Shown: piece by piece, positions 7,759-56,521 of the stretch
Numbering within the stretch: position 1 is the stretch's first letter
Layout: the number at the start of each line of letters is the position of its first letter
Source: Escherichia coli
GTDB lineage: Bacteria > Pseudomonadota > Gammaproteobacteria > Enterobacterales > Enterobacteriaceae
Assembly: GCF_041248615.1 (NCBI RefSeq)
Contig: NZ_CP158425.1
Strand: one strand, 5' to 3'
Length of the DNA: 64,000 bases
Notes under the pieces: model-generated
Told to the model about the DNA's origin: nothing
Seen by the model: the letters and a program-made list of their open reading frames with translations, nothing else
Databases searched by the model: none
Program-made: the position numbers and the translations under genes

Positions 7759-7761
7759 CAC

Positions 7762-12699: not shown

Positions 12700-12719
12700 G
12701 CAATGAGTCCTGACCCTAG

Positions 12720-15418: not shown

Positions 15419-15999
15419 GGCGGTCCACCGCCGAACCGCGATGCTGAAGCCACAAATCGAGCTTTGCGAGGAGTTTCTTTATCCGTCTCAATGAGATAAG
15501 GGCCAACTTTAGATCAAGTGCGTCGTAGTACGGCGTGCACCTTGGGCTTGATCCAGCTATAGTGTAATTGTATGCTGGAAATATGTGCAACCCTGGTGTC
15601 TAGGCCGTGCGAAGCCAATCAGGCTCGAAAGTCGTTGCGGGTTGTTATCCGTTAAAGGCGGCGACTGTAGCCGCCGCTATTTGGCCCCTTGATACCATTT
15701 AGCATTTGGAGCTTTAGGTTCTATAATTTAACGTTACGCTACAGCCGACACCCCGCTTGCCTGAGCGTTTGGATTTCAATCACTTAGTAGACCAACTTGC
15801 GGGTCGACGGTTCGTGTCCCTTCAAGGCGGAGGCTTCGGCAGCTGGCGTCTCTATGCCGCGGTGGTGCTTTTCCGAAACGGAAGTCGCCCATTCGCGTCA
15901 CGTAAACCGACCGTCAGGCGGTACGGCTTAGGAGAATAATCGCAAAGCAGACTGAGACCACCACCCTCGCGCTACCCTTTGCGCAGGCGTCGAAGGCGA

Positions 16000-16542
16000 T
16001 CAGGTGCGCTGATCGAGTCTGTCGAGCACCATCGCTGCAAGTTCATCGCTGGTGTGTGCACCACTATCGAGAACACGGGTTGTGGACGGAAGCCGTTCCC
16101 TTGCGGCCAAGCATCGGGCGACATTCGCTAATCGCCACTCTCGAATCTCCGCATTCCGATTCGGGTCAGGATGCATGGTCTGGTTCGAGATCCGGTGACG
16201 CAATAGGTCCTCGTTAAGCATCAGAAAGATGTGCAGCAGCTGATCGTCGATCTGCCTTAACCCGTCGAGTATCTCAGTCAGATAGTCCGGGTGCACGAGC
16301 GTCATTGGGATGATGATGTCCTGCGAGTAATTCCTGCGAATCTCGCTGACCGCAGCGATCGTAAGTCCCCTCCACAAGGGGAGATCCTGATAGTCTCCGC
16401 TCGCTGGTATGGGGACCGTTTCTTTCACCACGAACCCGATTTCCTCAGGGTCAAAGATCAGCGATTTCGGACGCCGATCGCGCAGCCGCTCAGCGAGAGT
16501 CGTCTTTCCGGCGCCGAAAGGTCCGTTGATCCAGATTATCAT
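16000..16542 (-). CDS. tmrB: TmrB-like P-loop ATPase (tunicamycin resistance protein family)
   Basis: 180 aa with Walker A GPFGAGKTT; lies immediately downstream of aac(3)-II as in remembered contexts. Confidence 0.8.
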   Translation of the reverse strand: MIIWINGPFGAGKTTLAERLRDRRPKSLIFDPEEIGFVVKETVPIPASGDYQDLPLWRGLTIAAVSEIRRNYSQDIIIPMTLVHPDYLTEILDGLRQIDDQLLHIFLMLNEDLLRHRISNQTMHPDPNRNAEIREWRLANVARCLAARERLPSTTRVLDSGAHTSDELAAMVLDRLDQRT

Positions 16543-16554
16543 TGTCGACGGCCT

Positions 16555-17415
16555 CTAACCGGAAGGCTCGCAAGAGCGCTGGGCGGCTTCGTGTGCTGGC
16601 ACGATCGGAGTGGCTCCGAAGTGCTTCTCAAGATAGGTGACGCCGAACGTCACGATGTCCTGCGCGTCGAACAGGTAGCACTGAGCAAAGCCCACGACAC
16701 CTTCTCGATGGCGACCGAGCTTCACGTAAGCATTTGCTATAGTTTCGACCGCATCCGGCTTTCCTTCGATAGCAAAGCAATCGAGAATGCCGTTTGAATC
16801 GTATTCTGATGCCGTTTTCCAGGCGACTTCACCGTTTCTTCCAAGCATCGGCATCTCATACGTCACCCATCGTTTGTTGGGGATATCCGCAACCGCCTCG
16901 GCGTAGTGCAATGCGGTAACGGAGTTTAGCGGCGCACCCAACAGCAGGGCCTTCCCGCCAAGGCGGACGAACCGCTCGACGGGCGACCCTTCCCCCAAGG
17001 CGTGACCGAGTTCGTGAGGCTCCGTCAGCGTTTCAGCTAGCGGACCAACCGCGACCATCGATGCATCGGGGTGCGCGCTGCGCCGCGCGCCGGGGGCTTG
17101 AACCAGAAATTGATTCAGCAGGCCGAACCCACGGTAAGTCCCGGCCGTTGCGGGATCGAACGGCGGCCAGGTACGGCGGGCTTTGTCATCCAACCGAGCG
17201 CCATTCAGAGTCTCCTCGTAGGGTGATCGGTCCCACGACGCGTATCCCATCACAGTGCCAGTCGGCCCAACCGCGGAGCGTAACGCGGCAACGACCGTCT
17301 CCGCTCCTCCTTCGACCGGACCAATCGCTTTAAGTGAGGCATGCACCATCAACAGGTCACCGGTTTGGACTCCGAGTTTTCGAATTGCCTCCGTTATTGC
17401 CTTCCGCGTATGCAT
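16555..17415 (-). CDS. aac(3)-II: aminoglycoside N-acetyltransferase AAC(3)-II (gentamicin resistance); sub-variant not resolved
   Basis: 286 aa MHTRKAITEAIRKLGVQTGDLLMVHASLKAIGPVEGGAETVVAALR... matches AAC(3)-II family. Confidence 0.92.
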   Translation of the reverse strand: MHTRKAITEAIRKLGVQTGDLLMVHASLKAIGPVEGGAETVVAALRSAVGPTGTVMGYASWDRSPYEETLNGARLDDKARRTWPPFDPATAGTYRGFGLLNQFLVQAPGARRSAHPDASMVAVGPLAETLTEPHELGHALGEGSPVERFVRLGGKALLLGAPLNSVTALHYAEAVADIPNKRWVTYEMPMLGRNGEVAWKTASEYDSNGILDCFAIEGKPDAVETIANAYVKLGRHREGVVGFAQCYLFDAQDIVTFGVTYLEKHFGATPIVPAHEAAQRSCEPSG

Positions 17416-17491
17416 CGCGATATCTCCTTTTAAATTAAAAATGAAGTTTTAAATCAATCTAAAGTATATATGAGTAAACTTGGTCTGACAG

Positions 17492-18364
<873 letters not shown>

Positions 18365-24916: not shown

Positions 24917-24961
24917 CGGCCATGACCGGCATGGCCGTACTCATCAAAAGTGAAAGTAACT

Positions 24962-25771
24962 TTAGGCCCCGCGAGCTTTTTCGATTGCGCCCTGCAAAGT
25001 TGCTGCGTCCATAGCCCCGGGGATAAATGTGGTAGTCGCCGCATTCGGCTTTTTCATATTCATAATGATGAAGCCGGGTGTGCCGGTGATCCCAAGCGCT
25101 TCGCCCAGCTGCATGTTGCCGGAGATCACGTTTTCATATCGGTTTTTTTCCCTGTCAGAAAACGTGCTGTTAAACCCTGACTTATCCACCACAGTATTAA
25201 AGTCGCTGAGTTCGAATTTGCGTTGAGAGGTCATGAAGGTATGAGCCACAGCCATCAGGTTGTTGTGGTATTTACGATAGGCTTCAGCACCGAAATTCTG
25301 ATAGACGTGCAGACCCGTAGCGGCCCCCATGGCAGATACAGGTTTTGAACCGGCAAAAATCGGGAATTCTTTAAAGAAGAATTTTACATCTTTGCTCTGA
25401 TTCATTACCGATTCAACAACAGGTGTAACCCGCATGCAGTAAATACACTGATAGTCGAAGAACTCGATTACCGCGACGTCGGCGTCATCCGGGCCGATGT
25501 TTGGCGTCTCCTTGGTATCCAGCAGAGCTGGCGCATATGGAATTATTCGTTCCACTGAGGCACTTACGTTCTGATTTTCCAGCGCCTTACCTGCTTCCAC
25601 TAAATAATGGGGATTTTTTACCAGGTAAGTAGCGGCAATTTTGCCAATTTCTTCCTCACTGAGCACCTTCGGTTTAAAATAAGTTGCCGCGATTAACGCC
25701 GAGGCAGCGGTAGCAATTACCGCAGAAATTAAAATCGTGGCCATCGGTTTTAAATAAAATTCTTTAGACAT
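24962..25771 (-). CDS. DsbA-family thiol:disulfide oxidoreductase-like protein
   Basis: 269 aa with CIYC (CxxC) active-site motif and N-terminal membrane anchor. Confidence 0.65.
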   Translation of the reverse strand: MSKEFYLKPMATILISAVIATAASALIAATYFKPKVLSEEEIGKIAATYLVKNPHYLVEAGKALENQNVSASVERIIPYAPALLDTKETPNIGPDDADVAVIEFFDYQCIYCMRVTPVVESVMNQSKDVKFFFKEFPIFAGSKPVSAMGAATGLHVYQNFGAEAYRKYHNNLMAVAHTFMTSQRKFELSDFNTVVDKSGFNSTFSDREKNRYENVISGNMQLGEALGITGTPGFIIMNMKKPNAATTTFIPGAMDAATLQGAIEKARGA

Positions 25772-26489: not shown

Positions 26490-26548
26490 AAGCAGACGGC
26501 GGGAAGAGAATGTTCAAAAGTGACTTTTGGACACGCACATAAACGTGG

Positions 26549-27416: not shown

Positions 27417-27429
27417 AAAAGTTACTTTT
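27417..27429. repeat. AAAAGT-N-ACTTTT motif instance (AAAAGTTACTTTT)
   Basis: Perfect; overlaps dsbC-like stop codon, 14 bp upstream of next gene start. Confidence 0.6.
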
Positions 27430-29509: not shown

Positions 29510-29522
29510 TAAAGTAACTTTT
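29510..29522. repeat. AAAAGT-N-ACTTTT motif instance (TAAAGTAACTTTT)
   Basis: 12/13; between convergent HAD-like and HNH genes. Confidence 0.5.
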
Positions 29523-31084: not shown

Positions 31085-34000
31085 CTACCTTTTATTTTCA
31101 TTAAGCCACTGATCCGCTTTATCGACACGTGACTGGTAAGGCTCATTTGTGTTGCTCAGCTCTGACTTCATGTACTGAATGAATTCATCTGCTTTCTGAG
31201 GCCCAAAGCGTGGGTCATCCGTCAATTGCTGCCGGATAGCCCTTTCAGAGTTCTGCGCTGCATTCGCATAAGTCGAAACGCCGTCGCTGCTAATACTCTG
31301 ATACCGGTCACTTACAGCTGCGACGCCATCAGACATCTGCATGTGATTAAGGACTTTACCCTGGAGAGAATCAGGCATATTTGCAGGGTTAGAGGCATCA
31401 TTTGCTATCGATGTCTGGGTTTGAAGGATGCCCGCTCCCGTAAGCATCTCATTTACCGGTTTCGCCCCAACGCTGGTTAGCGTATCCGAAACAAATTGCT
31501 GGCCCCCGAGTAGCGCACCAGAAATCGCGCCCCGCTCAGTGTTGGCCTCTATCTTTTCCCCAACCAAGCGATCTGTGACGGTCTGAGTGCGGTTACCAAC
31601 GAGACCACCGCCCGACCCACCCTCTCCTAGGTTTGCCCGTACGACTGACTCAAGTGAACCATCAGCTCTGTTATGAGTGTTGAAACTGCTATGGATGCTC
31701 TGAACGTCATTCATACTCCAGTTAACGTTATAGTTACCCAGTTCATTAAGGATCTTCTGGGTATCCGCTTTGAGCTGCTCTCTTTCGGCACCGGTAGCCA
31801 TGGTGCTGGCACCATAGGTAAAGACAGCTTGCTGTGCCAATTCAGCTCGCTTATCGTCCCGGCTTAAGTTCGGGTTGTTGGCAACACGACTAAAGTAGTT
31901 ATCAGTGTTATTAGATAAGCCACGAACTTGACCGCTCTGATACATACTGTTCAAAGCAGTGGCTCGTTGATCCATTCCATCACCAACCACCCGACCTCCG
32001 GTAGCCTTTTCCAGATCGTTAAATGTGCCTTCTGCATTTCTGACATCCTGACCTGAATTGACGACTTTCTCTACACCCTGATTATTCAGTACAGGGCCAT
32101 TCGTTTTGAGAGAATTGAGCACATTCCTTTCTTCATCAGAATAAGTGCGGCCCACGTTGTTGTTATGTATTCCCTGAATATCGCCTTTGCCCGCGTTATC
32201 AAGGTTATACGGAGTAAAGCCAGCTTCACTTTTTCCAGGGACACGCTGAGTCGCGTCCTGAGCGTTGGAGGAAAGACCGAGTTTAGCCTGCGAATCAACA
32301 CTTCCACCCAGTTCCCCTACGCGTGACGCACTCATCACGCCAGACGTATTTACGCTGTCAGGAGTTCTATCCTGTGCCTGAGTGATAGTATTAATTCCTG
32401 ACCCTTCGCCTGAAATTCTGTCGAGCTGATTGGTGATAGGTAGCAGCTGCTGTGCATTACCACCGAAGTCGGAAACCAGACTTTTAAGCAGGCTGGAGGT
32501 TTCACGGAGATCCTGTTTATTACTTTCGGCCGTCTCTCCCCGGGCGGTATCAATCGCAATTTTTTGCTCACTGAAATCTCGTGTTGCAGCCACAAGCGCG
32601 TCAGTACGTTGAAGCTGCGAACCAAGCTGATTACTGGCCTTGAAGGTATCGTTATAGGAGTTAAATTTCTCCATAAACGCATTCTCATCCAGCCCATTCT
32701 TACGAGCAAAATTCCTTACATCATCATCACTGAAGTTTTTGTTGCGAATAGAATCGGAGAACCTGTCCAGGTTAATGCTTTGTTTAGAATCAAGGCTCAT
32801 TCCACTATTGGAGCTGGCGTTAGTCGATACCGATGTAGAAATGTTTTGCGCCATCGTCTGTGTCGCCTGGTTCATTTTCGACGATGCTTCTTTAAACGCA
32901 TTAGTATTGGATATCTGATCGCTGCTTACCTGAGACGCCGCTTTACTGAACTGGTCAGTCAAAGCAGAATCCTGGCTAAGCTGATTCGTGATTGCTTTTG
33001 AAAGGTCATTTGAAAGCGAGTCACTGCCTGTATTGGTCTTAGATGCGCCGCTACTCAATTGCCCTGCTACAGCTGCTTTCAGCCCGGCTCCGTTGCCAGT
33101 TCCAGCACCTCCATTAAGCCCAGCGTTTAGAATAACATTTGAAGCAATGCTGGCCATCTGAGACGCACTCACCCCATGTTTCGTTGCAATACCTTCTGCT
33201 ACAGAGGCACCAATCTTATCCGAGATCTGCTTCATTGTTTGCAGGTTGGTTGAGAACTGCTGGCTCGACTGTCCTGACCTTCCAATTTCACTCATCTGAC
33301 TGTAACCAGCCTGGAATGAATTACTTGCCGCACTCATAACTGATGAGGTTACAGCTGATCCTTGCCCCTGGCTGTTAGCGATACTTGAACCAGCATTCCA
33401 CATTCCAAGACGGAAATTACTTGAATCAACTGCGCCGCCATCGCTGTATCCCTGACCGGTACTGGTCAAGGCGGTTCGTGTCACGTCACCAAATGAAGAT
33501 TTACCGCTGTTAGGGCCATCCCATACTTTGGGCGTTACATGACCAGTATCCACCGGCGCATCGGGGGTCACTCCCTTAACCGCATTCATCATCGGGTGAA
33601 TCGACTGTGTCATCAGGAATAATGTGAGTACCGGAATCAGAGCATAAAGCGCGGAAGCAACAGACAGGTATGAACTGTATGTTTCCGCAAGCCCTGGGAG
33701 CCCCATCCACGTGACGGCATTATTCTGGCTGTTGAGGGTGCTCCAGGTATCCAGATCGGCCGTCGCGACTTTCTTCACATACGCGTTGACCATTACTGCC
33801 GTAAGCGGCCACATATTCACGAAGAGAATAAGTTGCAAATATTTCGCCGCAGCGGCAACACCATTACCACCTAACGCCAGCAGCATAAGCAAAGCAAATG
33901 GAGCAACCATGTAAGCAAACATCTCAAGGAATGCGATTGCTGCTCCAGACAGTTGTAACCACAACTGGCCCTGTGAAGCCATTGTGTTGGTTCGCTTCAG

Positions 34001-35038
34001 AGAAGCCTCAAACAACTGCATATCGGAAGCCAGACCGAGTGGGGTCTTATATTTGCTTGCGCCATTTCTGAGCTCATTCATTATGAACAGGTTCAGGGTG
34101 GCGTCATACGAACCAATAGCCTTACCGTACATACCATTTGCTGACGCCATAACATCAGTAAAACTTGCGCCGGTAGGTGCACCATTTGCTTCGTCTGGAG
34201 TAAGGATGCCGTTTGTCTGTCCTATAAGGGAAATAGTCTGGCGAGCTTCAGCTGTACTGGTAACCTGTTTCACAGTTGACCAGACCTCATCACACGTACC
34301 AGATTTTGAACCGTTAGCGCCAACAATACTGGCAGAGGCATTCTTCAGTGCGCCTTTCATCGCCTGATTAATCCGGTCCATGCTATCTGCCAGATTAGCT
34401 GAGAAAATATCGTTAAAAATAGTTTCTTTACCGGCAATATTTGCGCTTGAGTTTTGGGTAGCCTTCAGGCAGTTGTATGCAAGAGACTGAACGGTAGCAC
34501 ATACGTTCATTGGCCCTAGCCCGCTGGCCGGTTCAGGAAATGCAGAACAGTAGCCCTGGCTATCGCCGCCCCATTGCAAAAACTTCACGAATCGGATCAT
34601 CGGACCGAGGGTGATGTCATCGTCCAGAGTTGTTGCAGACAGGTCCACCGGAGAAAGCGGATCAAACGCAGTTTTATAATCCTTCAGCAAACCCTGGCTT
34701 AAGTTAGTGGTGACGGTGGCCATCGCAGCAATAAAAATTGGAATTCCGTCGACGTTTCTGACCTCTCCCGACTTTACAGATTCAATAGTTACATCCACTC
34801 GAACCATTGCCATCATGAAAAGGATCAACCCCAAAAACCAGGAGAAAAACGGTAATTCATTTTTGGTCGGAGCCTGAAGCCATAGCCACGTTTTATAGAA
34901 TAGGCTCACACCTGCTACAACGGCGGCCGTGGTCAGGAACTCTTTTACACCAGTATATTGAGAAAAGATTAGGGCAATACCGGTAAAAGCCGACCAGACA
35001 AAATCAATATCACCCAGGGTATATATGTTGTAATCCAT
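31085..35038 (-). CDS. traG: F-type conjugative mating-pair stabilisation protein TraG/TrhG (large, N-terminal polytopic membrane domain)
   Basis: 1317 aa; N-terminal multi-TM TraG_N-like region; follows TraH as in F-like/IncHI systems. Confidence 0.85.
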   Translation of the reverse strand: MDYNIYTLGDIDFVWSAFTGIALIFSQYTGVKEFLTTAAVVAGVSLFYKTWLWLQAPTKNELPFFSWFLGLILFMMAMVRVDVTIESVKSGEVRNVDGIPIFIAAMATVTTNLSQGLLKDYKTAFDPLSPVDLSATTLDDDITLGPMIRFVKFLQWGGDSQGYCSAFPEPASGLGPMNVCATVQSLAYNCLKATQNSSANIAGKETIFNDIFSANLADSMDRINQAMKGALKNASASIVGANGSKSGTCDEVWSTVKQVTSTAEARQTISLIGQTNGILTPDEANGAPTGASFTDVMASANGMYGKAIGSYDATLNLFIMNELRNGASKYKTPLGLASDMQLFEASLKRTNTMASQGQLWLQLSGAAIAFLEMFAYMVAPFALLMLLALGGNGVAAAAKYLQLILFVNMWPLTAVMVNAYVKKVATADLDTWSTLNSQNNAVTWMGLPGLAETYSSYLSVASALYALIPVLTLFLMTQSIHPMMNAVKGVTPDAPVDTGHVTPKVWDGPNSGKSSFGDVTRTALTSTGQGYSDGGAVDSSNFRLGMWNAGSSIANSQGQGSAVTSSVMSAASNSFQAGYSQMSEIGRSGQSSQQFSTNLQTMKQISDKIGASVAEGIATKHGVSASQMASIASNVILNAGLNGGAGTGNGAGLKAAVAGQLSSGASKTNTGSDSLSNDLSKAITNQLSQDSALTDQFSKAASQVSSDQISNTNAFKEASSKMNQATQTMAQNISTSVSTNASSNSGMSLDSKQSINLDRFSDSIRNKNFSDDDVRNFARKNGLDENAFMEKFNSYNDTFKASNQLGSQLQRTDALVAATRDFSEQKIAIDTARGETAESNKQDLRETSSLLKSLVSDFGGNAQQLLPITNQLDRISGEGSGINTITQAQDRTPDSVNTSGVMSASRVGELGGSVDSQAKLGLSSNAQDATQRVPGKSEAGFTPYNLDNAGKGDIQGIHNNNVGRTYSDEERNVLNSLKTNGPVLNNQGVEKVVNSGQDVRNAEGTFNDLEKATGGRVVGDGMDQRATALNSMYQSGQVRGLSNNTDNYFSRVANNPNLSRDDKRAELAQQAVFTYGASTMATGAEREQLKADTQKILNELGNYNVNWSMNDVQSIHSSFNTHNRADGSLESVVRANLGEGGSGGGLVGNRTQTVTDRLVGEKIEANTERGAISGALLGGQQFVSDTLTSVGAKPVNEMLTGAGILQTQTSIANDASNPANMPDSLQGKVLNHMQMSDGVAAVSDRYQSISSDGVSTYANAAQNSERAIRQQLTDDPRFGPQKADEFIQYMKSELSNTNEPYQSRVDKADQWLNENKR

Positions 35039-35046
35039 GTCAGACC

Positions 35047-36462
35047 TCAGTTACGTGTGCCACGAATACTTTCAGTGAAAGCCTTCCGTTGCAGGCGACG
35101 GTTATCCCAGGTTGAAATGACGTCCGAGCTGGTACCGACCTGGCTGTGCGATAGCTCATAGGCGGCTTTAACCTGTTTTGAGAGATTGTCTGTTAATCGG
35201 TTGAGATCATCCCTTTTACCCGACAGCGACTCACTCGGTATGCTCATGGTTGAAATTTTGGCCTCAACCTGGCGCAACATGTTGATTACGAGGCTCGTCG
35301 CAGCAATAGTGCTTATGTCCTGAATGTATGCGTACCCTTCCGGTGCTTCGAATGTTTGCAAAGAGTCGATAATGGTCGGGATGCCGATATAGGAGATAAT
35401 GCGTAATTCATCATCTGAAACACGAACGTCGTTGATGATTTTTTTCTGTACGTTTAAAAGAAGATCAGAAATGGTATCCTTCAATCCCTTAAAACCACCG
35501 TCATTAACTTCTGACATGACAAGGCACTGAGCCTTTCGTGGGGATGATGGATCTGGTGCCGGAGAACACTTGAGCATTTTAATTGATCCGCCAGCTGGTG
35601 GCCCCATGATGTAATCCGTGACAGTCATGGTAGACGGGCGGACTTCCATTCCCGCTTTTTCGCCTTTGCTATCCCAGTTGATAATGACAGTACCCACGAG
35701 AGACATAAGTTGTTCTGCCAATTTATAACCGGATAACTCCGTTACCCCTCCGATGTTCATTGTTCCCTTATCAATATCCATGAACGACATATAGAAGAGG
35801 TTACCACTGAATTTTTCAGCGAACTCTTCGGGATCCTTTGCTTTAACCTGAGAAGTGACAGCTTCAGGTGACTTTGTCATCGATGAGCCAAAATCAGGAA
35901 TGAGACCATTAATCGATCCCAGAATTGAGGCTGGTCCAGAGCTAACTGAGTTAGCGAACTGGCTTGGCGTACCCACGTTTTCAGAAAGGAAAGAGTAAGT
36001 TGCATTGCATGAATCTTTCGCAAATTTATTTAGCGCTTGCAGTTTGTTTTGGATGTCATTAATCGTTGCAGCACAGTCAGCACAAATAGCTGAAACAGCA
36101 ACGTTAAAAGCATAGATAGCCGCACCCTGGGCAATACCACGGGCCACCTGCACAAGCTGGTCCCCGTTGATCATGCTGAAGGACCCAAGAAAAACGTCAA
36201 TACCATTACAACCGACAGAAGCTTTTGGAAACGACATGGAAACAAGGTTGGTATTAACGTTTGTTGTTCGGTAAGACATTGACCCGCCAACTATGCCTGT
36301 ACGGGTTGCTGTGGAAAAGGTGGCCGGGCTGGTAGACGTCATCATGCCATTGAAAATGTTACGCATTGCGTTGTCTGCATTTGCAGTCGGGGCTAAAATT
36401 GCAGCACAAACAGAAAGAGACAAAAGTAACTTTTTGAAGTTGAAAACGGCATTACTGCGCAT
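35047..36462 (-). CDS. traH: F-type conjugative pilus assembly protein TraH/TrhH
   Basis: Signal peptide MRSNAVFNFKKLLLSLSVCAAILA; TraH-like sequence; ATG at 36462 has GGAGG upstream. Confidence 0.85.
   Translation of the reverse strand: MRSNAVFNFKKLLLSLSVCAAILAPTANADNAMRNIFNGMMTSTSPATFSTATRTGIVGGSMSYRTTNVNTNLVSMSFPKASVGCNGIDVFLGSFSMINGDQLVQVARGIAQGAAIYAFNVAVSAICADCAATINDIQNKLQALNKFAKDSCNATYSFLSENVGTPSQFANSVSSGPASILGSINGLIPDFGSSMTKSPEAVTSQVKAKDPEEFAEKFSGNLFYMSFMDIDKGTMNIGGVTELSGYKLAEQLMSLVGTVIINWDSKGEKAGMEVRPSTMTVTDYIMGPPAGGSIKMLKCSPAPDPSSPRKAQCLVMSEVNDGGFKGLKDTISDLLLNVQKKIINDVRVSDDELRIISYIGIPTIIDSLQTFEAPEGYAYIQDISTIAATSLVINMLRQVEAKISTMSIPSESLSGKRDDLNRLTDNLSKQVKAAYELSHSQVGTSSDVISTWDNRRLQRKAFTESIRGTRN
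36422..36434. repeat. AAAAGT-N-ACTTTT motif instance (AAAAGTAACTTTT)
   Basis: Perfect; inside the traF/traH overlap (traH signal-peptide codons). Confidence 0.5.
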
Positions 36463-37498
36463 AAGTGCCTCCAAAACTGCCGCCAGCATTGAGATAATTG
36501 ACCGGATCGGCCGTAGGCATGTCATAGCCTTCGAGTTTTTGGTCCATTATTTTTTGAAGTAAGAATGGGTCTGATTCCATTTCGGATTTATTAACGGTAA
36601 TAACGCCATCATCACCGATGGTATATTGCCTTTTAATATCTAGAGTTGACTGAAACGAAGCGTCATCGATCAGATTCATGCCCTTCGCGGCAAGTATAAT
36701 AGTGTTCTTTAATTCATCAGCGGAGATCATGCCTTCACTAATGCGCTGAGCTGATGTCCCATCCTTTGAAACCAGGAAAATTGTAGGTACCTCTCGAATT
36801 TTAAATTGATCAATAATTTGTGCATTGGGGATGTTAAAATCCTGAAAAAGGCCATTATGCAATGGCCTTCCATCCATACTGATTGGAAGAATATCTACCG
36901 AATAATAGTTCTGCATAAATTGAAGTATTTGGCTCTCTTCGTGGCAAAACTGGCAAGTACTCTGGAAAAAGAAAAATAAACCTGACTTAGTAAAGATATC
37001 TTTCATTACCGTTTGCTGATTTTTTTCAACAACAGTGCGGTGAGCATCCAGTGCCACCTTTTCCACTGGTTGCCTGCGTTTTTCAGACATCATCGGGTTT
37101 TTAAGAAAATAATCTTTTGATTTGTCAGAAAAACGCGTACTGATATCCAGCATTAACCTTTGCGCCGTGTAATAACGTGATAGATTTTCTGCGGTAGGGT
37201 TATCCATTGCCTGCGTTAACAGTCGAGGCATATTCTCTTTTAGCCATTTTGAATTTAAATCTACCTTTTCCTCTTTTGAAGGCGAGCTAGCAGCACCGGT
37301 TGGTGGCAAAACCTTTTCTTCTTCAGCTTCGCTTTTTTTAGCAGGATCGTCATACCAGAAGAAACCCTTCTTATAAGCCTGGCCTGATACAAAGGGCGTA
37401 TCTTTTATTAGGGGTTGCTCAGGGCTGGCGTGGGCACCAGTAATTACCAAAGACATAAGCAAAACCATCTTTGAAGGCGCTAATGCAATACGAGTCAT
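36452..37498 (-). CDS. traF: F-type TraF/TrbB-like thioredoxin-fold pilus assembly protein (CxxC)
   Basis: 348 aa with CQFC motif in a thioredoxin-like C-terminal domain; AAGGAG upstream of the ATG. Confidence 0.8.
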   Translation of the reverse strand: MTRIALAPSKMVLLMSLVITGAHASPEQPLIKDTPFVSGQAYKKGFFWYDDPAKKSEAEEEKVLPPTGAASSPSKEEKVDLNSKWLKENMPRLLTQAMDNPTAENLSRYYTAQRLMLDISTRFSDKSKDYFLKNPMMSEKRRQPVEKVALDAHRTVVEKNQQTVMKDIFTKSGLFFFFQSTCQFCHEESQILQFMQNYYSVDILPISMDGRPLHNGLFQDFNIPNAQIIDQFKIREVPTIFLVSKDGTSAQRISEGMISADELKNTIILAAKGMNLIDDASFQSTLDIKRQYTIGDDGVITVNKSEMESDPFLLQKIMDQKLEGYDMPTADPVNYLNAGGSFGGTYAQ

Positions 37499-38091
37499 AG
37501 ACCGTTCTCCTTTTCTGATGCGGTTATGATGGCATACAAAAAAAAGGTTAGAGCTCGTATAGCATGGTCGTTTTTATGTTGAAAAGGACGGAAAAGGAGT
37601 GCTGACTAAGAAGATAGTCTCGGTGATGGAAAGATCATCCATCTTGCACATTGTGAAAAATCCGGTGTAACAAAAACATGGTTTTATCGAATATCTAAAA
37701 GCAAATATTGCTTTGAAAACAGGTGTATTAAGAGCTGAAAAAAATCATCACCAGTAACGCTGTTTCTATATTTCAAAGAAGGAATAGCTAAGGATCAAAG
37801 AAGCGAACTTAGGCAAGAATATAAAATATATTAATTGAAAGCGATTAAGAAGTCGTCATGCATAGAAGGTTTTAGAGAACCTAAGTAGTTTTACGTTTTC
37901 AACAGAAAAAAAGGTGAACATTTTTTGGAACGAAGAAAGACTGTATAAAGAAAAATCAAATTATATCTTTACTTGTCAAGAGTTAATATTTAAGTTGTAA
38001 CTAATATTTGATTGTAAAGCAAACAACAGAATTTGACTTAAGTCAATATTTAGATTCAGACAAGGCAAGTTTCGCGATATCTTTTTTAAAT

Positions 38092-38604
38092 TTAATCTAA
38101 TTCTTCTTGAGAATACCTCTCTATGGCTGAAGCAGTTGAAGATAATCTGCAACGTGGACAATAAGCATCATTTGTCACTGGCACAATGTATGGGCGTTTA
38201 CATTTTTCGCAGGCACCTAGTTCTTCAATTTCTTTCATAGAAGTAAGGATTTCTATTATTTTATTAACTTCCGGTGCGCATACAAAGTATCCCAGATTAT
38301 GAAGGACACTCATTATTCGGTTGAAGTCAATTTGCCGAAAACTCGCTTCCGGATTTATTGGATCAAAACCAAAATAGTTAACTGCGACATCAATAACAGC
38401 AGAAAAAGCTCGGCGGTTATCTGTGCGTTTGCTCCAGCCCCGGATACCTTTTTTGAGTTTTGTTTTTGCACCAGGCTCAAAATCGATATTTTCAGCAACA
38501 TGATTACCGTACAAAATTCGTATTGTATTTTTATTTGCCCCAAGCGACATAGTCCTTGCTGCTCGCAATAGAGCATTAGCTTTTGTTTGATCGACCTTTG
38601 CCAT
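38092..38604 (-). CDS. hypothetical protein with C-terminal zinc ribbon (possible transfer regulator)
   Basis: 170 aa; CEKC...CPRC motif; position equals trhR/trhY-like genes next to oriT in IncHI Tra1 (assignment not verified). Confidence 0.5.
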   Translation of the reverse strand: MAKVDQTKANALLRAARTMSLGANKNTIRILYGNHVAENIDFEPGAKTKLKKGIRGWSKRTDNRRAFSAVIDVAVNYFGFDPINPEASFRQIDFNRIMSVLHNLGYFVCAPEVNKIIEILTSMKEIEELGACEKCKRPYIVPVTNDAYCPRCRLSSTASAIERYSQEELD

Positions 38605-38605
38605 A

Positions 38606-39406
38606 TTAATAATCCTTTAACATAACTTTATTTGTTAAAGTGTTGAACACATCCTGACGGTGACTGGTGAACATAGTGTCATAACGTAATAGTTCCATCA
38701 AATCATCACTAACTTTTCCTAACCGGATGTCAGCAGACAATTCATAAGCCCAGGCAAAAACTTTCGTTTTAAGTGAAACACTCTCTTCAATATGCCCTTG
38801 TGAGAAAGCAATTGTACGTGGGAAAAGAACGACATCGTTAATTGTTTTTAACGATGAATAACCAATGTCTTTAATAGCATCAGCTGTAGTTGGTTTTAAA
38901 CCAAAGAAAACACTTACAAACTCTGGTGCGAGCATTGAGATAAAGAACACCTGCATAAAGTAGTCATTCTGTATATCAACACATTTAGAACGCAACTCAT
39001 GAATCTTCTTGGGATTATAGATATCCACTGTACCATTCAGAAAAGTCACTTTTTCACCGGCATCGTAAATACCATAGTCAATATCATTTGTATCATATTC
39101 ACGAATTACATTGGAATCACCGTCCAAGACCGCAGAAAAAAACCTCTCCCATGTAATTTCCTTTCCGAGTGTACGCGGAACCAAAAAACTACCTGGACGT
39201 GTTTCCACTTCAAAAGCTAAATCAGCGGCTGTACTAAATCCTTTCCCAAATAGGCGACGCTGGAGAAGAGGAGTCCCAGTTTGATATGCAGAAGATCCAT
39301 GCACAGGCAATAACATTAAAAATGCACGGTAACTACGAATAAGCGAAATCTCAGTGCGGAAAAGTTTACCGAGTAAGCTACGAGTTAAATTATCAGATTC
39401 TGACAT
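38606..39406 (-). CDS. hypothetical protein (266 aa)
   Basis: ORF separated by 1 nt from the following gene; no motif recognised. Confidence 0.5.
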   Translation of the reverse strand: MSESDNLTRSLLGKLFRTEISLIRSYRAFLMLLPVHGSSAYQTGTPLLQRRLFGKGFSTAADLAFEVETRPGSFLVPRTLGKEITWERFFSAVLDGDSNVIREYDTNDIDYGIYDAGEKVTFLNGTVDIYNPKKIHELRSKCVDIQNDYFMQVFFISMLAPEFVSVFFGLKPTTADAIKDIGYSSLKTINDVVLFPRTIAFSQGHIEESVSLKTKVFAWAYELSADIRLGKVSDDLMELLRYDTMFTSHRQDVFNTLTNKVMLKDY

Positions 39407-39481
39407 GTGCTGATTGTCCTTGCGCCATTACAATTGTTCAAATCTTCAACATGGATTTTTTGTTAGGTGTTCGGTAGGGTG

Positions 39482-39494
39482 AAAAGTAACTTTT
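39482..39494. repeat. AAAAGT-N-ACTTTT motif instance (AAAAGTAACTTTT)
   Basis: Perfect; oriT-candidate intergenic region. Confidence 0.6.
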
Positions 39495-39733
39495 AGTATT
39501 TTCTTAAGGCTTGAATAAGCCTTAAATCTATCCCTTCAACCACACCGCTTACTTGTAACACTTTTTAACCAAACTGACCAGAATTTTATCAAAATTTCTT
39601 CGCATGCTAACGAAATGTGAAGCGATTAAAAAAAAACCTAAATCCAGCCCCTCCCAACGTTGGATTAGAATAACGACGTCTTTCACTGACCGTCATAAAC
39701 TGACATTTTTACTTTTCATCAACCTCATGCTTA

Positions 39734-39966: not shown

Positions 39967-39979
39967 AAAAGTAACTTTA
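39967..39979. repeat. AAAAGT-N-ACTTTT motif instance (AAAAGTAACTTTA)
   Basis: 12/13; oriT-candidate intergenic region, other side of the palindrome array. Confidence 0.55.
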
Positions 39980-41387: not shown

Positions 41388-44300
41388 ATGATGATGAATT
41401 TCAGGGCGCTGTATTTATGTATTAAACGGATTTTGGGGATATTCTCATCTCAGGAGAATGATGCAACCTCTGTAATGATTGAGGATATATCAAGCCTCTC
41501 TCCTTTTGCGCAGATTCTAGGAGATCAGAAGTACACTGTTCCTGATCATCCAAATCCAGAAGTCCTGAAATTCATCGAGTATCCAACTCGTCCGACGGGC
41601 ATACAGACATTTAATGAACAGTCAATCCTGTCTCTGTATCGGGAAAAGCTGCACTCAATTTCAATGATGTTAGCTATCAGCGATAGCGACATCAGGGACG
41701 ATGCATATACATTTACTAATTTAGTATTAAAGCCCTTGGTTGAATATGTTCGCTGGATACATCTTTTGCCAGCTTCCGAAAATCATCATCATAATGGTAT
41801 TGGTGGGTTACTTTCTCACAGCCTGGAAGTGGCCATACTCTCTTTAAAAAATGCGCATCACTCAGAACTGAGACCAATCGGATATCAAGATGAAGAAGTA
41901 GTCCGTAGAAAAGTATATCTCTATGCTGCGTTTATCTGTGGTTTAGTCCATGATGCCGGAAAGGTTTACGATCTCGATATTGTAAGCCTGAATTTAGCTA
42001 GTCCGATCATTTGGACGCCAAGCTCACAAAGTCTTCTTGACTGGGCACGTGAAAATGACGTGGTTGAATACGAAATCCACTGGCGAAAGCGTATTCATAA
42101 TCAACATAATATCTGGTCCAGCGTTTTCCTTGAGCGAATCCTAAACCCGGTATGTCTTGCATTTTTGGATCGGGTAAATAAAGAACGTGTTTATTCAAAA
42201 ATGATCACCGCCCTAAACGTTTATACTGATGGGAATGACTTTTTGTCTAAATGCGTGAGGACCGCTGATTTCTATTCTACTGGTACAGACCTTAATGTTT
42301 TACGTGACCCTATCATGGGTCTGCGTTCTAATGATGCAGCAGCAAGGGCCATTAGTACCATCAAGCACAACTTTACCAGTATCAATATCAACAATTACAA
42401 TGCTAAGCCTATGCACATCATTATCGTAAATGGTGAGGTATACCTTAACGAGAACGCATTCCTTGATTTTGTTCTCAATGATTTCGAATTACATAAATAT
42501 AACTTCCCTCAGGGAGAGGCTGGTAAGACGGTATTGGTAGAATCCCTAGTTCAACGTGGTTACGTCGAGCCCTATGATGATGAGCGTGTCGTTCACTACT
42601 TCATTCCGGGTATCTATTCGGAAAACGAAATATCAAACATCTTTAGAAATGGGATAGGGAAACTAGAATTCTATAACCTTCTTAAGCTAAGGTGGATTGG
42701 TTTAATCTTTGATTCCTATAAAATCCCTGACTCAGTGCCGGGTCTTTTTAGCGTTAATGCCAATAAAGACTTTATTTACATTGACGAGCAAAAAACAGTT
42801 ACTGAATACAGAAGACCAGTGCCCGGTCGGGACGCTATAACTAAAATTACTGATACTGTTGAGACGGCTGTTCTTAAGGTTAATGATTTAGGCCGCTCCA
42901 CTGCCTCTATTGATGTTGATATACATTCTAAGAAAAATGAAGGCTCATCCGACGATTTTGAGAAGAAAGCCGAAAGTGATAATGAAATTGATAATGACAC
43001 GCAGATAGTTAAATCTGAGGGTGAGGAAGCAGCTGATCCTGTCATTCCTGATATAGAAGAAAGTGAAGATGAATCGGCAAAGGACACGGAATCCCATGTC
43101 CTGGTCAACCAACTTCATGAACTCCTTTTAAGCGCTCCACTTTCCAATGACTATATAGTGTGTGTAGATGCTGTCCCCTACCTCAACATAGATGCCACTA
43201 TGGCATTGCTGCCGGGATTAGATGAAAAAGCATTTAGTGAAGAGCCCTATTTCCAACTGACATTCAGAGAAGGCTCTCTCGATGGAATGTGGATAGTAAG
43301 GGACATTGACGATCTGCGTTTAGTCCAGCTCGGCGATAACTGCGCCGGGTTCCAGCTCACCTATCATGAGCCAAGAAGGCCAACAACTTTAAAGTCACTT
43401 TTCAATACTTCTATGTATCAGGCATTAGTGATTAATGATGAGTCTTCTGTTGAAAACTCTGCCCCACGTCCAAAGCAAACGCTTGAGCTGCCTCCCCCAC
43501 GTGTAAATGCACTCGAAGAACATTCTGGCGACGTGGAATATCATGGAACCGATAGTGCATCCGCGACTGGTCCGCTGAAAACTGAGGCTGTGGAATATGA
43601 ACATTATCAACATCTTTTTGAGGAAGAAGATGAAGAGCATGAGATCATTGATTATACCGATTTCACACAGCTTAGTGTTTCTCGGCCAGAAGTCGGTAGT
43701 TGTGCAACAAGCTCTTCGGTCCATAATGAAAAGCTTCTCCCCGAGCCGTCAGAATTACCAGAACTTAACCGAGAACAGAACGCTGATCCCCAGGGTACGA
43801 TTGAACGCTCTATGGATGTTTCTGTAGGACAAGAAAACTCAGAACCAGATACTGAGGGTAACTGCCCACCACCAGCTGAAGTTGTGTATTCCCAGACCGA
43901 AGCAGCCGCAACCAGTGTGATGGCAAGTGAAGAGCCCGCCTTACCTCCTGTACTTGAAGAATCAAATGGAGAGCATGCGCCCACAGACGCTAAGGGGCAT
44001 CATCTTTCGCCAGCACTGGCCAGACTGTTCGCCCCAACAGCACCGGTAGAAAAACAAAATCCCAAGCGCAACCGGAATAAATCATCGGACAAAGCAGAAG
44101 TACAAAAACCAGCATCACCTGTTTCTGGTCACAATCTGAACAGTAAAGTCTTTGCAACTACTGAATCAGACCAAAATGGTGAATTCTCGCTTATAAGCGA
44201 AGGTGACGTTACAGAGCTTGAATTTGTAGAAATTGCGTCAGTACTGCATCAAATTCTGTCCAAAATGGAGGTGGCGTTTAAAAGAAAGCGCAAAAACAGA

Positions 44301-44540: not shown

Positions 44541-46624
44541 TGTCAGATTCGAAGAGGACTAACCTCCATGCACAAGAGAATTTTTATCGGCCTATTCTTG
44601 AGTATCGTAGTGCCTCAATACTTTTGATTTGTTCGGTTTCTATGCTTTATATGGGACTTTCTTCAGACGGACTGGACATCGCCCCAATAGTTCTGTTCAC
44701 CTCAATATTGCTTTTTTTGCTGTGCCTTTATCGTTGCAAAACAGCAGCGCCATTCTTGATGGCTCATTGGCGTGTATTCAAGCGACATTTCATGTTCGTT
44801 AGTCTTGATTCACTGCGTGTAATTAACAAAAGTAACTTTTTCTCCAATGAGCGAAAGTATCGTCAACTGGTTCAGGATTATCAAAATAAAAATAAGGATA
44901 TACCCGAGCGAAAGTCCTATTTTTGTGATGGGTTTGAGTGGGGCCCGGAACATGCGGATCGGGCATATCAAATAGCTAACCTCTCCAGTGATAAACGTGA
45001 GATCGAGTTGCCATTCGTCTTCAACCCAATTAAGAGACATTTTGACGCAATGGCTCGTAAGATGGGCGGCAGCAATGCAATTTTTGCTGTGGAACGTAGG
45101 GAACCCATATTTGTAACTGAAGACAATTGGTTTGGTCATACTCTGATAACCGGAAACGTGGGTACCGGGAAAACGGTGCTACAGCGTTTACTAAGCATTA
45201 GCATGCTTCATCTTGGTCATGTTGTTGTTGTCATAGATCCAAAGAACGATGCAGAGTGGCGAGAATCTCTAATGGAAGAGGCTAAGACCCTCGGTCTTCC
45301 TTTCTATAAATTTCATCCTGGCCAGCCAGCATCTTCGGTCTGTATTGATGTCTGCAACACCTATACTAATGTTTCTGACCTAACATCTCGTCTTTTGAGC
45401 TTGGTGACAGTTCCCGGTGAGGTTAACCCATTCGTTCAGTATGCCAAGGCTCTCGTTTCCAATGTGATTTCCGGGCTTTCTTACATAGAGAAAAAGCCTT
45501 CTATTTATCTGATTCACAAGAACATGAAAAGCCACATGTCTATTGTGAATCTTACAGTCAAGGTAATGGAGTCATGTTACGCGAGATATTATGGTTACGA
45601 TGTCTGGACCGAAAAAGTTAAGTACGTCGCTAACGAAACCTTGCCGGTACGTTTCAAGCGTCTCGCTGAATGGTTTACGGCTCATTTCATGAATTACGAG
45701 GGGTCCGAACAAATAGACTGGTTAGATACTGTTTCCCAGCTTATTGATTACTCAATGTCCGACCCAGAGCATATGGCTAAAATGACCGCAGGTATTATGC
45801 CTGTTTTCGATATGCTCATTGAAAAACCTTTAAATGAGCTTTTATCTCCTAACCCGAACTCAGTATCATCAAGAGAAATTGTAACAAGCGAAGGGATGTT
45901 CAGCACTGGCGGGGTGCTATACATTTCGCTTGATGGCCTTTCAAACCCCGATACAGCAGCTGCTATTTCTCAATTAATAATGTCAGATCTGACCTCCTGT
46001 GCCGGTAGTCGCTACAACGCTCAGGATGGTGATATGTCAGCTAATTCCAGGATAAGTATTTTTGTTGATGAGGCACACTCAGCCATTAACAACCCTATGA
46101 TTAACCTTCTGGCGCAGGGTCGTGCAGCGAAAATTGCACTGTTTATTTGCACCCAAACCATCTCCGACTTTATTGCTGCGGCAAGTGTTGAAACTGCCAA
46201 TCGAATTACGGGGCTCTGCAACAATTATATAAGCTTGCGAGTCAACGATACTCCTACTCAGACGCTTGTTGTAGAGAACTTTGGTAAGAGTGCGATAAGC
46301 ACAAATATGGTCACTTATACGACCGGTTCAGAAACATCTTTGCCGCATAATAACTTCTCAGGTTCAATCTCAGAAAGAAAGCAGACAACTTTAGAAGAGA
46401 GTATTCCAAAGGATCTCTTGGGTCAGGTCCCTATGTTTCACATAGTTGCCAGGCTTCAAGATGGCAGGAAGGTTGTAGGCCAAATCCCTATTGCTGTTGC
46501 TGAGAAACAAATGAAGCCAAACACAACTCTGTCGGAAATGCTTTTCAAGAAGGCCGGAAAAGTTACTTTGCGTCAAAATCTCGATATCAAAAATCTTAAT
46601 AAATTTCTAAGGAAGTTGCATTGA
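44540..46624 (+). CDS. type IV coupling protein (TraG/TraD/VirD4 family)
   Basis: 694 aa; N-terminal TM segments; Walker A GNVGTGKT; start overlaps traI stop. Confidence 0.85.
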   Translation: MSDSKRTNLHAQENFYRPILEYRSASILLICSVSMLYMGLSSDGLDIAPIVLFTSILLFLLCLYRCKTAAPFLMAHWRVFKRHFMFVSLDSLRVINKSNFFSNERKYRQLVQDYQNKNKDIPERKSYFCDGFEWGPEHADRAYQIANLSSDKREIELPFVFNPIKRHFDAMARKMGGSNAIFAVERREPIFVTEDNWFGHTLITGNVGTGKTVLQRLLSISMLHLGHVVVVIDPKNDAEWRESLMEEAKTLGLPFYKFHPGQPASSVCIDVCNTYTNVSDLTSRLLSLVTVPGEVNPFVQYAKALVSNVISGLSYIEKKPSIYLIHKNMKSHMSIVNLTVKVMESCYARYYGYDVWTEKVKYVANETLPVRFKRLAEWFTAHFMNYEGSEQIDWLDTVSQLIDYSMSDPEHMAKMTAGIMPVFDMLIEKPLNELLSPNPNSVSSREIVTSEGMFSTGGVLYISLDGLSNPDTAAAISQLIMSDLTSCAGSRYNAQDGDMSANSRISIFVDEAHSAINNPMINLLAQGRAAKIALFICTQTISDFIAAASVETANRITGLCNNYISLRVNDTPTQTLVVENFGKSAISTNMVTYTTGSETSLPHNNFSGSISERKQTTLEESIPKDLLGQVPMFHIVARLQDGRKVVGQIPIAVAEKQMKPNTTLSEMLFKKAGKVTLRQNLDIKNLNKFLRKLH
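44828..44840. repeat. AAAAGT-N-ACTTTT motif instance (AAAAGTAACTTTT)
   Basis: Perfect; inside coupling-protein gene about 290 bp from its start. Confidence 0.5.
46558..46570. repeat. AAAAGT-N-ACTTTT motif instance (AAAAGTTACTTTG)
   Basis: 12/13; near 3' end of coupling-protein gene. Confidence 0.45.
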
Positions 46625-51451: not shown

Positions 51452-51464
51452 GTGAGTCAGAAAG
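51452..51464. repeat. AAAAGT-N-ACTTTT motif instance (GAAAGTTACTTTT, followed by CCG)
   Basis: 12/13; intergenic, 155 bp upstream of 51297 gene start. Confidence 0.55.
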
Positions 51465-51653
51465 TTACTTTTCCGTAATAGTTAATTTCAGATCCTTCTT
51501 CCAGTTACGCTTCAGTATAAAACCGATACCCTCTAATTCAGCATCCTTCACGTTTAATACGCTTCACTTTAAGGCAGGGCTTTTCGGTTGATATGAATTC
51601 TTTTTCCGGTTGCTGGACATGGGTTTCATCCTGATAGTTAAAATTGCAGGCTA

Positions 51654-55234: not shown

Positions 55235-56419
55235 TCATGACTGTCCCTTGTTCATCTTATCAGCATGCTTACGCAGGTACTCTTTCAGGTCAGCATGAGC
55301 GTTGATGATATCGTTCATTTCATCATTGGTCAGAACAAGCGTGTAAGTATCAGTACTGACAGATTCACCTTCTTTAAGCTTGGCTTCTTCAGCAATACGT
55401 TCAAAAATCGGGATCGCGGTGTCTGCAATGACGGTCACAGTCTTTTTGTTCAGAACGCTGGACATGGAAGGTGCTTTACCTGCCGGGTTCTGTTTAGGAG
55501 CGCTGTCCTTTGGAGCTGGAGCCGGTTCCTGTACCGGTGGCGTATCCAGCGTCTCCGTATTGCTTTCATCGTTCAGTTGATCCGGTACCGGGGTGTTATC
55601 GGTAGTATCATCTGCCGGTTGCTCAGCACCGATGTTTTCCGGAGTCTGCGGATCTGCCATGCGCTCTTCTACCTTGGCAGCTTTGACGAATTTCAGCGTG
55701 TTTTTCGTCGCCTTGCCATAGATGGAGATCGCTTTGTTGATGTTATCTACCGCATCCTCACCGCTGTACATATACTCGTCCAGTGCAACGTACATGCTCA
55801 CCTGATCGCTCACAAGCATGGTCTGTAGTTCAGAAGGCAGGTCCAGTACGCGAACCATCTGGCGAAGATGCTGCTCTGATTTACCACGTTTTTTTGCCAG
55901 TTCCGCAAAGGTCTTAGGCTCTTCTTTATCTTCAACCAGACGCTTAATTGAAAGCGCTTCAGCTACGACAGACAGCGCCAGGTTGGAGTTGCCGGTCAGG
56001 GTGAAGAGTTCTGCTTTTGAAGCGCTACCGCGAAACTCTTCGCAGCGAATACGAGTAATGCGTTCACGCCCTTCTGCTTCCAGCTGGCGGTTTGCAATAG
56101 CGATGGAACGGATACGGCAAGCCCCCTGACGCAGTACAGGTACGCCATTAACCATCTGAACAACGATAGGCGTCACGCTGAACGGGTCTTCCATGTAGGC
56201 ATCGGCCAGGCTGTTCAGGTGTTCCACAACGTGAGGCATTGAATAGTAGAGCTCGCCCATACCGGCCGTGCGGGTGTTAAAGCCTTCCTGCTCTACAACA
56301 ACCGAAGGGTCAATGATAAGGCCGTTGCCTTTACGGGCACCGTTACCAGTGCGTTCCAGGTAACCACGAAGGCTGATTTCGTTGCTGTTGTTTTTTACTT
56401 CAGTTTCGATTGCGGACAT
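55235..56419 (-). CDS. ParB/Srx-domain protein (ParB-like, orphan)
   Basis: N-terminal IIDPSVV..NTR and GACRIRS (GxxRxR[AS]) ParB-box-like motifs; acidic linker; no parA partner adjacent. Confidence 0.55.
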   Translation of the reverse strand: MSAIETEVKNNSNEISLRGYLERTGNGARKGNGLIIDPSVVVEQEGFNTRTAGMGELYYSMPHVVEHLNSLADAYMEDPFSVTPIVVQMVNGVPVLRQGACRIRSIAIANRQLEAEGRERITRIRCEEFRGSASKAELFTLTGNSNLALSVVAEALSIKRLVEDKEEPKTFAELAKKRGKSEQHLRQMVRVLDLPSELQTMLVSDQVSMYVALDEYMYSGEDAVDNINKAISIYGKATKNTLKFVKAAKVEERMADPQTPENIGAEQPADDTTDNTPVPDQLNDESNTETLDTPPVQEPAPAPKDSAPKQNPAGKAPSMSSVLNKKTVTVIADTAIPIFERIAEEAKLKEGESVSTDTYTLVLTNDEMNDIINAHADLKEYLRKHADKMNKGQS

Positions 56420-56508: not shown

Positions 56509-56521
56509 AAAAGTAACTTTT
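56509..56521. repeat. AAAAGT-N-ACTTTT motif instance (AAAAGTAACTTTT)
   Basis: Perfect; 90 bp upstream of ParB-like gene start. Confidence 0.6.

Follow-up and report, generated by a model that had tools for sequence, protein, structure and literature searches.

The window analysed here, a stretch of 64,000 nucleotides (nt) from Escherichia coli contig NZ_CP158425.1 (assembly GCF_041248615.1), is by sequence comparison part of an IncHI2 plasmid and carries, within its pilus-assembly gene trhH, one exact copy of a short palindrome, AAAGTNACTTT, that recurs across the plasmid. Positions 35000–39500 were 100% identical to hundreds of IncHI2 plasmids, among them pSTM6-275, from whose annotation the gene coordinates and names were taken over. 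The gene trhH (35047–36462, minus strand) encodes a TraH-family pilus-assembly protein of 471 amino acids (aa), assigned from its annotation, its translation and the Pfam TraH matches of its homologues; the translated N-terminus, MRSNAVFNFKKLLLSLSVCAAILAPTANA/DN, reads as a Sec-type signal peptide. It is flanked by trhF (36452–37498, minus), which encodes a TraF/thioredoxin-family protein, and by trhG (31085–35038, minus), annotated as encoding a TraG N-terminal domain protein, which ends the trhF-trhH-trhG block. An earlier, sequence-only reading of the region had named the first two genes traF and traH. This is right as to the kind of gene, but they are the IncHI homologues trhF and trhH and not the F-plasmid genes themselves.

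The 13-mer AAAAGTAACTTTT is read on the plus strand at 36422–36434, exactly as that reading had reported, with its core palindrome at 36423–36433. On the coding (minus) strand the interval runs aAA AAG TTA CTT TTg and specifies K10, K11, L12, L13 and L14 of TrhH, preceded by F9. The claim that the motif sits in signal-peptide codons is thus borne out (codons 10–14, K-K-L-L-L). Its placement in an 11-nt overlap of the two genes needs correction: the 3'-terminal 11 nt of trhF do overlap the start of trhH (36452–36462), but 18 nt separate this overlap from the motif, which is located deeper within trhH and has no base in common with trhF.

Copy number, position and conservation of the palindrome

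The actual unit is an 11-bp palindrome, AAAGTNACTTT, present plasmid-wide and usually in the form AAAAGTWACTTTT. Six exact copies of the 13-mer were counted in the window, where 100 dinucleotide shuffles predict 0.00, and 15 of the 11-mer, always in backbone DNA between 24953 and 63639. No one-mismatch variant of the 11-mer was present in the window, with 2.45 matches at one mismatch or fewer expected by chance, and all 15 AAGTNACTT 9-mers extended to the full 11-mer, as did 48 of 50 across the plasmid (a count that includes one site twice). The 253.6 kb of pSTM6-275 that were fetched held 47 exact copies, and the accessory part (~95 kb) contributed just one of them. In the 180 kb of R27, the reference plasmid for IncHI1, 46 were found where an order-4 Markov model predicts 0.6; these exact copies outnumbered all one-mismatch variants together (25), where chance would give the reverse. 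The over-representation of AAAGTNACTTT is ~80-fold. Apart from the palindromes of multiple IS26 copies, no other was nearly as frequent, whatever arm and gap lengths were tried. In ~85% of the pSTM6-275 copies the central base is A or T, and the flanks of the window copies showed no conservation beyond 11–13 bases.

Copies were enriched in intergenic DNA. Where the window is annotated, 14 copies occur and 8 of them are intergenic, against 16% intergenic sequence (binomial P=6e-4), and at the IncHI3 locus L012 the count was 18 of 20, mostly 20–260 nt 5' of start codons. Plasmid-wide, ~55–60% of copies were intergenic and the remainder intragenic. Intergenic copies typically lay 80–260 bp 5' of start codons in the putative leading region (an array of small genes adjoining oriT), in the oriT/trhR-mobI region and at the trhA operon. 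The sites reach far past the transfer genes, to those for tellurite resistance, replication and Ig-like proteins and into the leading region. The 19 intragenic copies were read as K-V-T-F/L (12), K-S-N/D-F (4) or K-L/S-L (3). Outside the window, htdO carries a copy at codons 3–6 (K-V-T-L). The region 5' of trhF has none.

A hairpin, a terminator or any other role at the RNA level was rejected. Six base pairs closed by a loop of one nucleotide cannot fold, the central base is unconstrained, and the copies face either way relative to transcription, some of them between convergent genes; the palindrome is therefore read as a site in duplex DNA to which a symmetric protein dimer binds.

The motif is conserved across the plasmid family. 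At sites alignable between IncHI1 and IncHI2, the ten specified motif bases were identical in 79 of 80 cases compared with 71% identity in the flanking 120 nt. AAAGTNACTTT was the top palindrome in every IncHI-like locus examined, with 15 copies in 41 kb of an IncHI1 locus and 17–20 copies in 41 kb of Klebsiella IncHI3-type plasmids, despite a TrhH identity of just 50% in the latter. It was also found in loci of K. grimontii, Yersinia intermedia, Photorhabdus and several metagenomic contigs. An IncC locus held no copy of AAAGTNACTTT, and no orthologue of the candidate ParB-like protein described below was found in IncC.

The trhH copy was compared at the DNA level in ten TrhH lineages, ranging from 100% down to 50% amino-acid identity; a further tblastn search with TrhH at E<=1e-150 yielded no extra lineages. 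Eight of the ten carry the exact AAAGTTACTTT, beginning at nt 30–45 of trhH. All eight encode it with the minor codons AAG TTA CTT T, for which the probability given K-L-L is 0.0125 per lineage under the codon usage of the window's own genes. The residue following Leu-Leu is L, F or C, and the sole common part of its codons is the leading T that the motif needs. The distance from start codon to motif varies among lineages, and the preceding peptides are unrelated (NAVFNF, DFHVCA, SSAPRL, TSRLRK, STKLTK and LRRGSQ). The two exceptions are a lineage with a single substitution (AAAGGTACTTT, Leu to Val) and a short metagenomic homologue without the motif. The sequence-only reading had named, as the result that would speak against a function, homologous traH genes in which different codons specify the same peptide and the motif is missing. 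The comparison gave the opposite, with the DNA itself conserved down to 50% identity, and since the codons are fixed while the peptide diverges, that refutation fails.

A second signal peptide holds the same site. In trhU, which lies outside the window, the signal peptide (VKKFKKLLLEF) contains the motif in codons identical to those of trhH, AAA AAG TTA CTT TTA, in both IncHI2 and R27 (pSTM6-275 record position 30727, in L002; R27 record position 9209, in L024). IncHI3-type plasmids carry a second copy 17 nt upstream of the trhH motif, right after the trhF stop codon, and the paired copies stand 17 bp apart at the trhF/trhH junction (L008 19986–19996 and 20003–20013; L022 6133–6143 and 6150–6160). 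The annotated GTG start of the IncHI3-type traH would place both copies inside the open reading frame; the true start may be an internal ATG or GTG followed by KKLLL.

We consider it very likely that AAAGTNACTTT is a selected protein-binding site. The comparisons favour the operator-like interpretation first offered for the trhH copy, in that the palindrome is exact and over-represented, enriched between genes and kept at the nucleotide level in trhH. The other interpretation then offered, a tolerated position of a spreading repeat, found no support. The copies have neither conserved flanks nor mobile-element structure, and a REP- or MITE-like element was rejected because there is no longer conserved unit, no hairpin is possible, and positions are orthologous between IncHI1 and IncHI2 and in the eight trhH lineages.

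The remaining copies in the window lie in varied contexts. The leftmost (24953–24963) stands between the convergent 3' ends of umuC and dsbA, and its position is kept in IncHI1, as is that of the copy at 27418–27428, a gene junction where the motif covers the stop codon of a thioredoxin-fold gene. Two more occupy convergent intergenic regions, at 26517–26527 and, past a gene for a HAD-domain protein, at 29511–29521. Around the oriT region, one copy (39042–39052, position kept in IncHI1) falls within a 266-aa gene at the trhR position and another (39483–39493) 77 nt 5' of it, a copy 77–127 nt 5' of the trhR-position gene being present in five lineages. A third (39968–39978) lies in the oriT-region divergent promoter, 197 nt 5' of mobI; six of eight lineages have a copy 187–218 nt 5' of this gene. 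The mobH relaxase gene contains a copy at 43391–43401 that is not kept in IncHI1, and the coupling-protein gene traD/traG has one within it (44829–44839) and one at its 3' end (46559–46569), both kept in position in IncHI1. Of the others, one is intergenic, 164 nt 5' of a small gene of unknown function (51461–51471), and one lies within a gene of unknown function near the window end (63629–63639). The final two (56510–56520 and 56636–56646) precede the ParB-like gene. Positions 1–24000 of the window are accessory DNA (a qacEdelta1/sul1 integron remnant, IS26 and similar elements) and hold no motif copy. The window departs from pSTM6-275 at ~20003 and is without that plasmid's IS421/IS150 insertion near 60.3–63.2 kb.

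A candidate binding protein and its relatives

The candidate binder is an orphan ParB/KorB-like protein of 394 aa (WP_001272970.1) encoded at 55235–56419 on the minus strand; the gene for its R27 orthologue lies at 92336–93541 of that plasmid. It is laid out as an N-terminal ParB/Srx-like domain, a ParB-type helix-turn-helix (HTH) at residues 149–209, a disordered linker at 256–320 and C-terminal helices. Pfam detected HTH_ParB (E=7e-6), sequence comparison with the PDB returned the DNA-binding domains of Caulobacter ParB, and the NCBIfam ParB and Noc models matched below their cut-offs. An AlphaFold2 model was confident over residues 17–255. With this model as query, the best Foldseek match in the PDB was RK2 KorB (8qa9; E=1e-8, target TM 0.67), with structures of ParB and Noc ranking next, which suggests a KorB-like fold. 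The GFNTR and RQGACRIR boxes (the latter with GxxR = G99-A-C-R102) were invariant in 16 homologues. Orthologues in six other lineages were 35–67% identical; an alignment scan of genome contigs gave a single locus, and the diversity came from protein searches and contig look-ups. The neighbouring genes are small and of unknown function, with no adjacent parA and no gene for a KorA partner.

In all seven lineages (35–100% identity) the ParB-like gene has one to five motif copies within ~900 nt upstream, and in six of the seven a proximal copy lies 91–130 nt 5' of it (91 nt in IncHI2, 102–130 nt in the five others). In the window the proximal copy, at 56510–56520, is a putative auto-operator 91 nt from the start, and the distal copy, at 56636–56646, lies 217 nt from it. 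Copies so placed are what one would expect of a KorB- or ParB-type protein that regulates its own gene.

On balance we lean towards the AAAGTNACTTT sites being operator or loading sites of this protein, which would regulate itself through the upstream copies. As with KorB, BisD and VirB, the palindrome would be contacted by the ParB-type HTH of a dimer, and the bound protein might close as a cytidine triphosphate (CTP)-dependent clamp and act on nearby promoters, repressing or activating them. The copies 5' of the gene would let the 394-aa protein control its own expression. As no copy lies 5' of trhF, the trhH copy, ~1.1 kb inside the trhF-trhH-trhG block, is proposed as the entry or binding point for the whole block. 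The palindrome would be tolerated in trhH because AAG TTA CTT T encodes the Lys-Leu-Leu of a signal-peptide start, at no cost to the protein.

Among known systems, KorB with its operator OB comes closest, as judged by the geometry and density of the sites and by the kind of protein proposed to bind them, although neither sequence nor gene organisation places the IncHI system in that family. The RK2 protein is a CTP-dependent sliding clamp that is loaded onto DNA at OB palindromes of 13 bp and silences distant promoters (PMC11790492). The IncHI palindrome, AAAAGTNACTTTT, has the length (13 bp) and the 6-1-6 geometry of OB, TTTAGCSGCTAAA (PMC11790492; PDB 8qa9, 1r71). Their densities are comparable, with 12 sites per 60 kb in RK2 and ~47 per 170 kb of IncHI backbone, and promoter-proximal, promoter-distal and intragenic or remote sites occur in both. 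The candidate resembles KorB in its ParB N-terminal domain and HTH fold, with KorB as the best structural match, and in having copies 5' of its own gene. Unlike the KorB system, the IncHI system uses a site sequence other than TTTAGCSGCTAAA and a candidate that lacks a Pfam KorB domain and an adjacent gene for ParA (IncC in RK2) or KorA; its plasmid also encodes two paralogues and has ~4 times more sites.

Other relatives share fewer features. ICEclc, like IncHI, has a MOBH relaxase. Its BisD is an orphan ParB-like CTP clamp that can switch on transfer promoters over distances of up to tens of kb (PMC12409273). The bisS sites, like those of IncHI, are odd-centred palindromes (GAGCTATCCCCnGGGGATAGCTC) and lie inside genes (inrR, ssb), and BisD acts distally on transfer-gene promoters (PMC12409273). 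In contrast, ICEclc has two functional bisS sites as against ~47 in IncHI, and BisD has a C-terminal activator domain and acts with BisC; nothing BisC/FlhC-like was seen in IncHI, where no dedicated search was made. VirB of the Shigella virulence plasmid is described (PMC10770331) as a ParB-like CTPase without a partition role that binds inverted repeats 5' of promoters and relieves silencing by H-NS. The IncHI transfer genes are likewise H-NS-silenced, and thermoregulated (PMC7366339). VirB differs in having few sites.

Noc of Bacillus subtilis is a ParB paralogue without ParA and has ~70 palindromic sites (NBS) over its replicon. Its structures (PDB 7ol9, 6y93) were among the top matches of the 394-aa model, but Noc has a chromosomal role in cell division, a membrane-targeting helix and an unrelated site sequence, and is not known from plasmids. 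No description of the motif or of the candidate protein's function was found in the searchable texts, the subscription-journal papers on R27 and R478 being beyond reach; PMC11724359 concerns KOPS, matS and dif, not AAAGTNACTTT.

Plasmid centromeres of the ParABS type have in common with the IncHI system the family of the binder and the palindromic type of site, but the IncHI sites are not clustered beside parAB, which has its own tandem array. The region around parAB in the pSTM6-275 record (7134–18053) held no motif copy and contains a separate array of six 249-bp repeats. A partition centromere was therefore rejected, as was, by inference from these arrays and the absence of AAAGTNACTTT near parAB, the canonical Par1 ParB as binder. 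The arrays lie 5' of the canonical parA-parB, in IncHI2 as 249 bp x 6 (L002 12515–14025, pSTM6-275) and in the IncHI3 plasmid p1194_11_1 as 66 bp x 34 with ACAACnnnGTTGT (L010 24901–27124). Neither contains AAAGTNACTTT, and they probably represent the Par1 centromere or incompatibility region. A Tus/Ter fork barrier, built from few, oriented copies of an asymmetric ~21-bp site, was rejected for a symmetric 11-mer with ~47 copies; the motif has just GTAAC in common with the E. coli Ter core.

Further observations concern related backbones. Motif clusters are much denser in IncHI3-type plasmids than in IncHI1 and IncHI2, with four to five copies within ~455 bp 5' of the ParB-like gene (L012 19416–19871; L013 9419–9871) and four within 330 bp 5' of the trhA-operon region (L010 17147–17478). 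A PAPS-reductase-family protein of ~790 aa is kept in IncHI1 and IncHI2 backbones (pSTM6-275 record 223710–226094, L005 7480–9864; R27 69684–72059), and a motif copy lies in the intergenic DNA just 3' of its gene. Elsewhere, proteins of this family pair with ParB-like partners of the IbrA/IbrB type. The IncC plasmid pB557-NDM (L011) has another palindrome, the 14-bp parS-like TTTCACATGTGAAA, with seven copies scattered over its 40 kb backbone locus (positions 290, 3874, 4333, 9648, 12984, 24028 and 27443). One of these stands 63 nt 5' of an operon of parA and a gene annotated as 'KorB domain-containing protein', and the whole looks like an analogous scattered-site system.

Alternative binders and wider significance

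Whether the 394-aa protein is the binder of AAAGTNACTTT is, in our judgement, evenly balanced. We infer the link between protein and site from the copies upstream of its gene in seven lineages, and several observations weigh against it. The motif is invariant in all lineages, so that no covariation links site and protein. The positions that determine specificity in ParB and Noc differ between the IncHI2 and IncHI3 orthologues (E/V, M/L, D/T), the invariant part of the recognition helix being just S-x-x-H-x-R. Pfam gave neither a ParBc nor a KorB domain in the protein at E<=0.01, and scans for sigma-70 consensus promoters and terminators around the trhH copy and 5' of the ParB-like gene returned nothing above chance. 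Many small genes beside oriT also carry upstream copies, so the ParB-like gene is not singled out. Finally, the candidate is not the only orphan ParB-like protein of IncHI2. Two paralogues, B and C, share ~30% identity with it and carry the same boxes, and in one IncHI3 plasmid (p1194_11_1) copies also precede the B-like gene. In the pSTM6-275 record the paralogues lie at 269897–271060 and 274270–275325 (L006 3667–4830 and 8040–9095), near RepB and the Dam-methylase region. Their boxes read GFN(T/S/P)R and (V/L)RQGxCR, and a related 312-aa protein occurs in IncC.

The best-surviving alternative, possible but rather unlikely in our view, keeps a selected site and assigns it to another plasmid-encoded binder: paralogue B or C, the regulators at the trhR and trhY positions, HtdA or an uncharacterised backbone protein. 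All three ParB-like paralogues share N-terminal boxes and HTH type, and the copies at the B-like gene of p1194_11_1 stand 117 and 296 nt upstream. Against these two, neither B nor C has upstream copies in IncHI2 or pCF10, and the recognition helix is not common to the B orthologues. The conserved copies 5' of and within the trhR-position gene, and those 5' of mobI and the trhA operon, would suit a conjugation regulator, and PMC7366339 gives no binding site for TrhR, TrhY or HtdA. Yet no DNA-binding domain was detected by Pfam or NCBIfam in the proteins at the trhR, trhY and htdA positions, and a conjugation regulator fits poorly with sites that extend well past the transfer genes and with a copy-free region upstream of trhF.

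That the sites are targets of a DNA-modification or restriction-related enzyme of the plasmid is highly improbable. The motif is palindromic, and IncHI2 does encode a Dam-family and other methyltransferases, a DUF4942 protein, a PAPS-reductase-family protein and HNH proteins. Enzyme targets are, however, normally avoided or neutral and not ~80-fold over-represented, intergenically enriched and conserved in position, and 10–12 specified bases with A/T-tract arms would make an atypical methyltransferase site.

An enterobacterial host factor recruited by the plasmid is no more probable. A conserved host protein would suit a motif that is identical on plasmids from Escherichia, Salmonella, Klebsiella, Yersinia and Photorhabdus, but just one copy was counted in the plasmid's ~95 kb of accessory DNA, and none in the IncC locus, whose plasmid has the same hosts. 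We also know of no E. coli regulator with a AAAGTNACTTT-type site, those of matS, SlmA, CRP and Fur being different. Least credible is a functionless trhH copy, either a by-product of K-K-L-L-L coding or a passively tolerated spreading repeat: Lys-Lys-Leu-Leu-Leu is a generic signal-peptide start in which the palindrome can be read in frame, but this account is largely refuted by the sequence comparisons, namely AAG TTA CTT T fixed in eight of ten trhH lineages at a chance of 0.0125 each, the T base kept while the residue after Leu-Leu changes between L, F and C, the variable distance from the start and variable adjoining peptide, and the lack of conserved flanks, repeat-element structure or a possible hairpin.

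Among Enterobacteriaceae, plasmids of the groups IncHI1, IncHI2 and IncHI3 are major vehicles of resistance to multiple drugs, to colistin and to carbapenems, and H-NS/Hha, HtdA, TrhR and TrhY explain their temperature-dependent transfer just in part. Returning to the ParB/KorB-like protein as binder, we tentatively suggest that these plasmids hold an undescribed global control layer, in which an orphan CTP-dependent ParB/KorB-like clamp would load at ~47 exact AAAGTNACTTT backbone sites, some of them in trhH and trhU signal-peptide codons, and set the expression of oriT-adjoining, replication-proximal and transfer genes. It would possibly do so by silencing upon entry into a new cell, or by opposing H-NS in the switch that makes transfer thermosensitive. 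Taken alone, the trhH copy is of modest interest; as the entry to a plasmid- and family-wide cis element its interest is moderate to good. A cis element that is exact, occurs family-wide and comes with an obvious candidate binder offers a directly testable handle on plasmid-wide regulation, and would, if the interpretation is true, provide a clear case of a regulatory DNA site selected inside signal-peptide codons. If the ParB-like protein binds the motif, ParB-type clamp regulation as in KorB, BisD and VirB would be extended to the largest group of enterobacterial megaplasmids.

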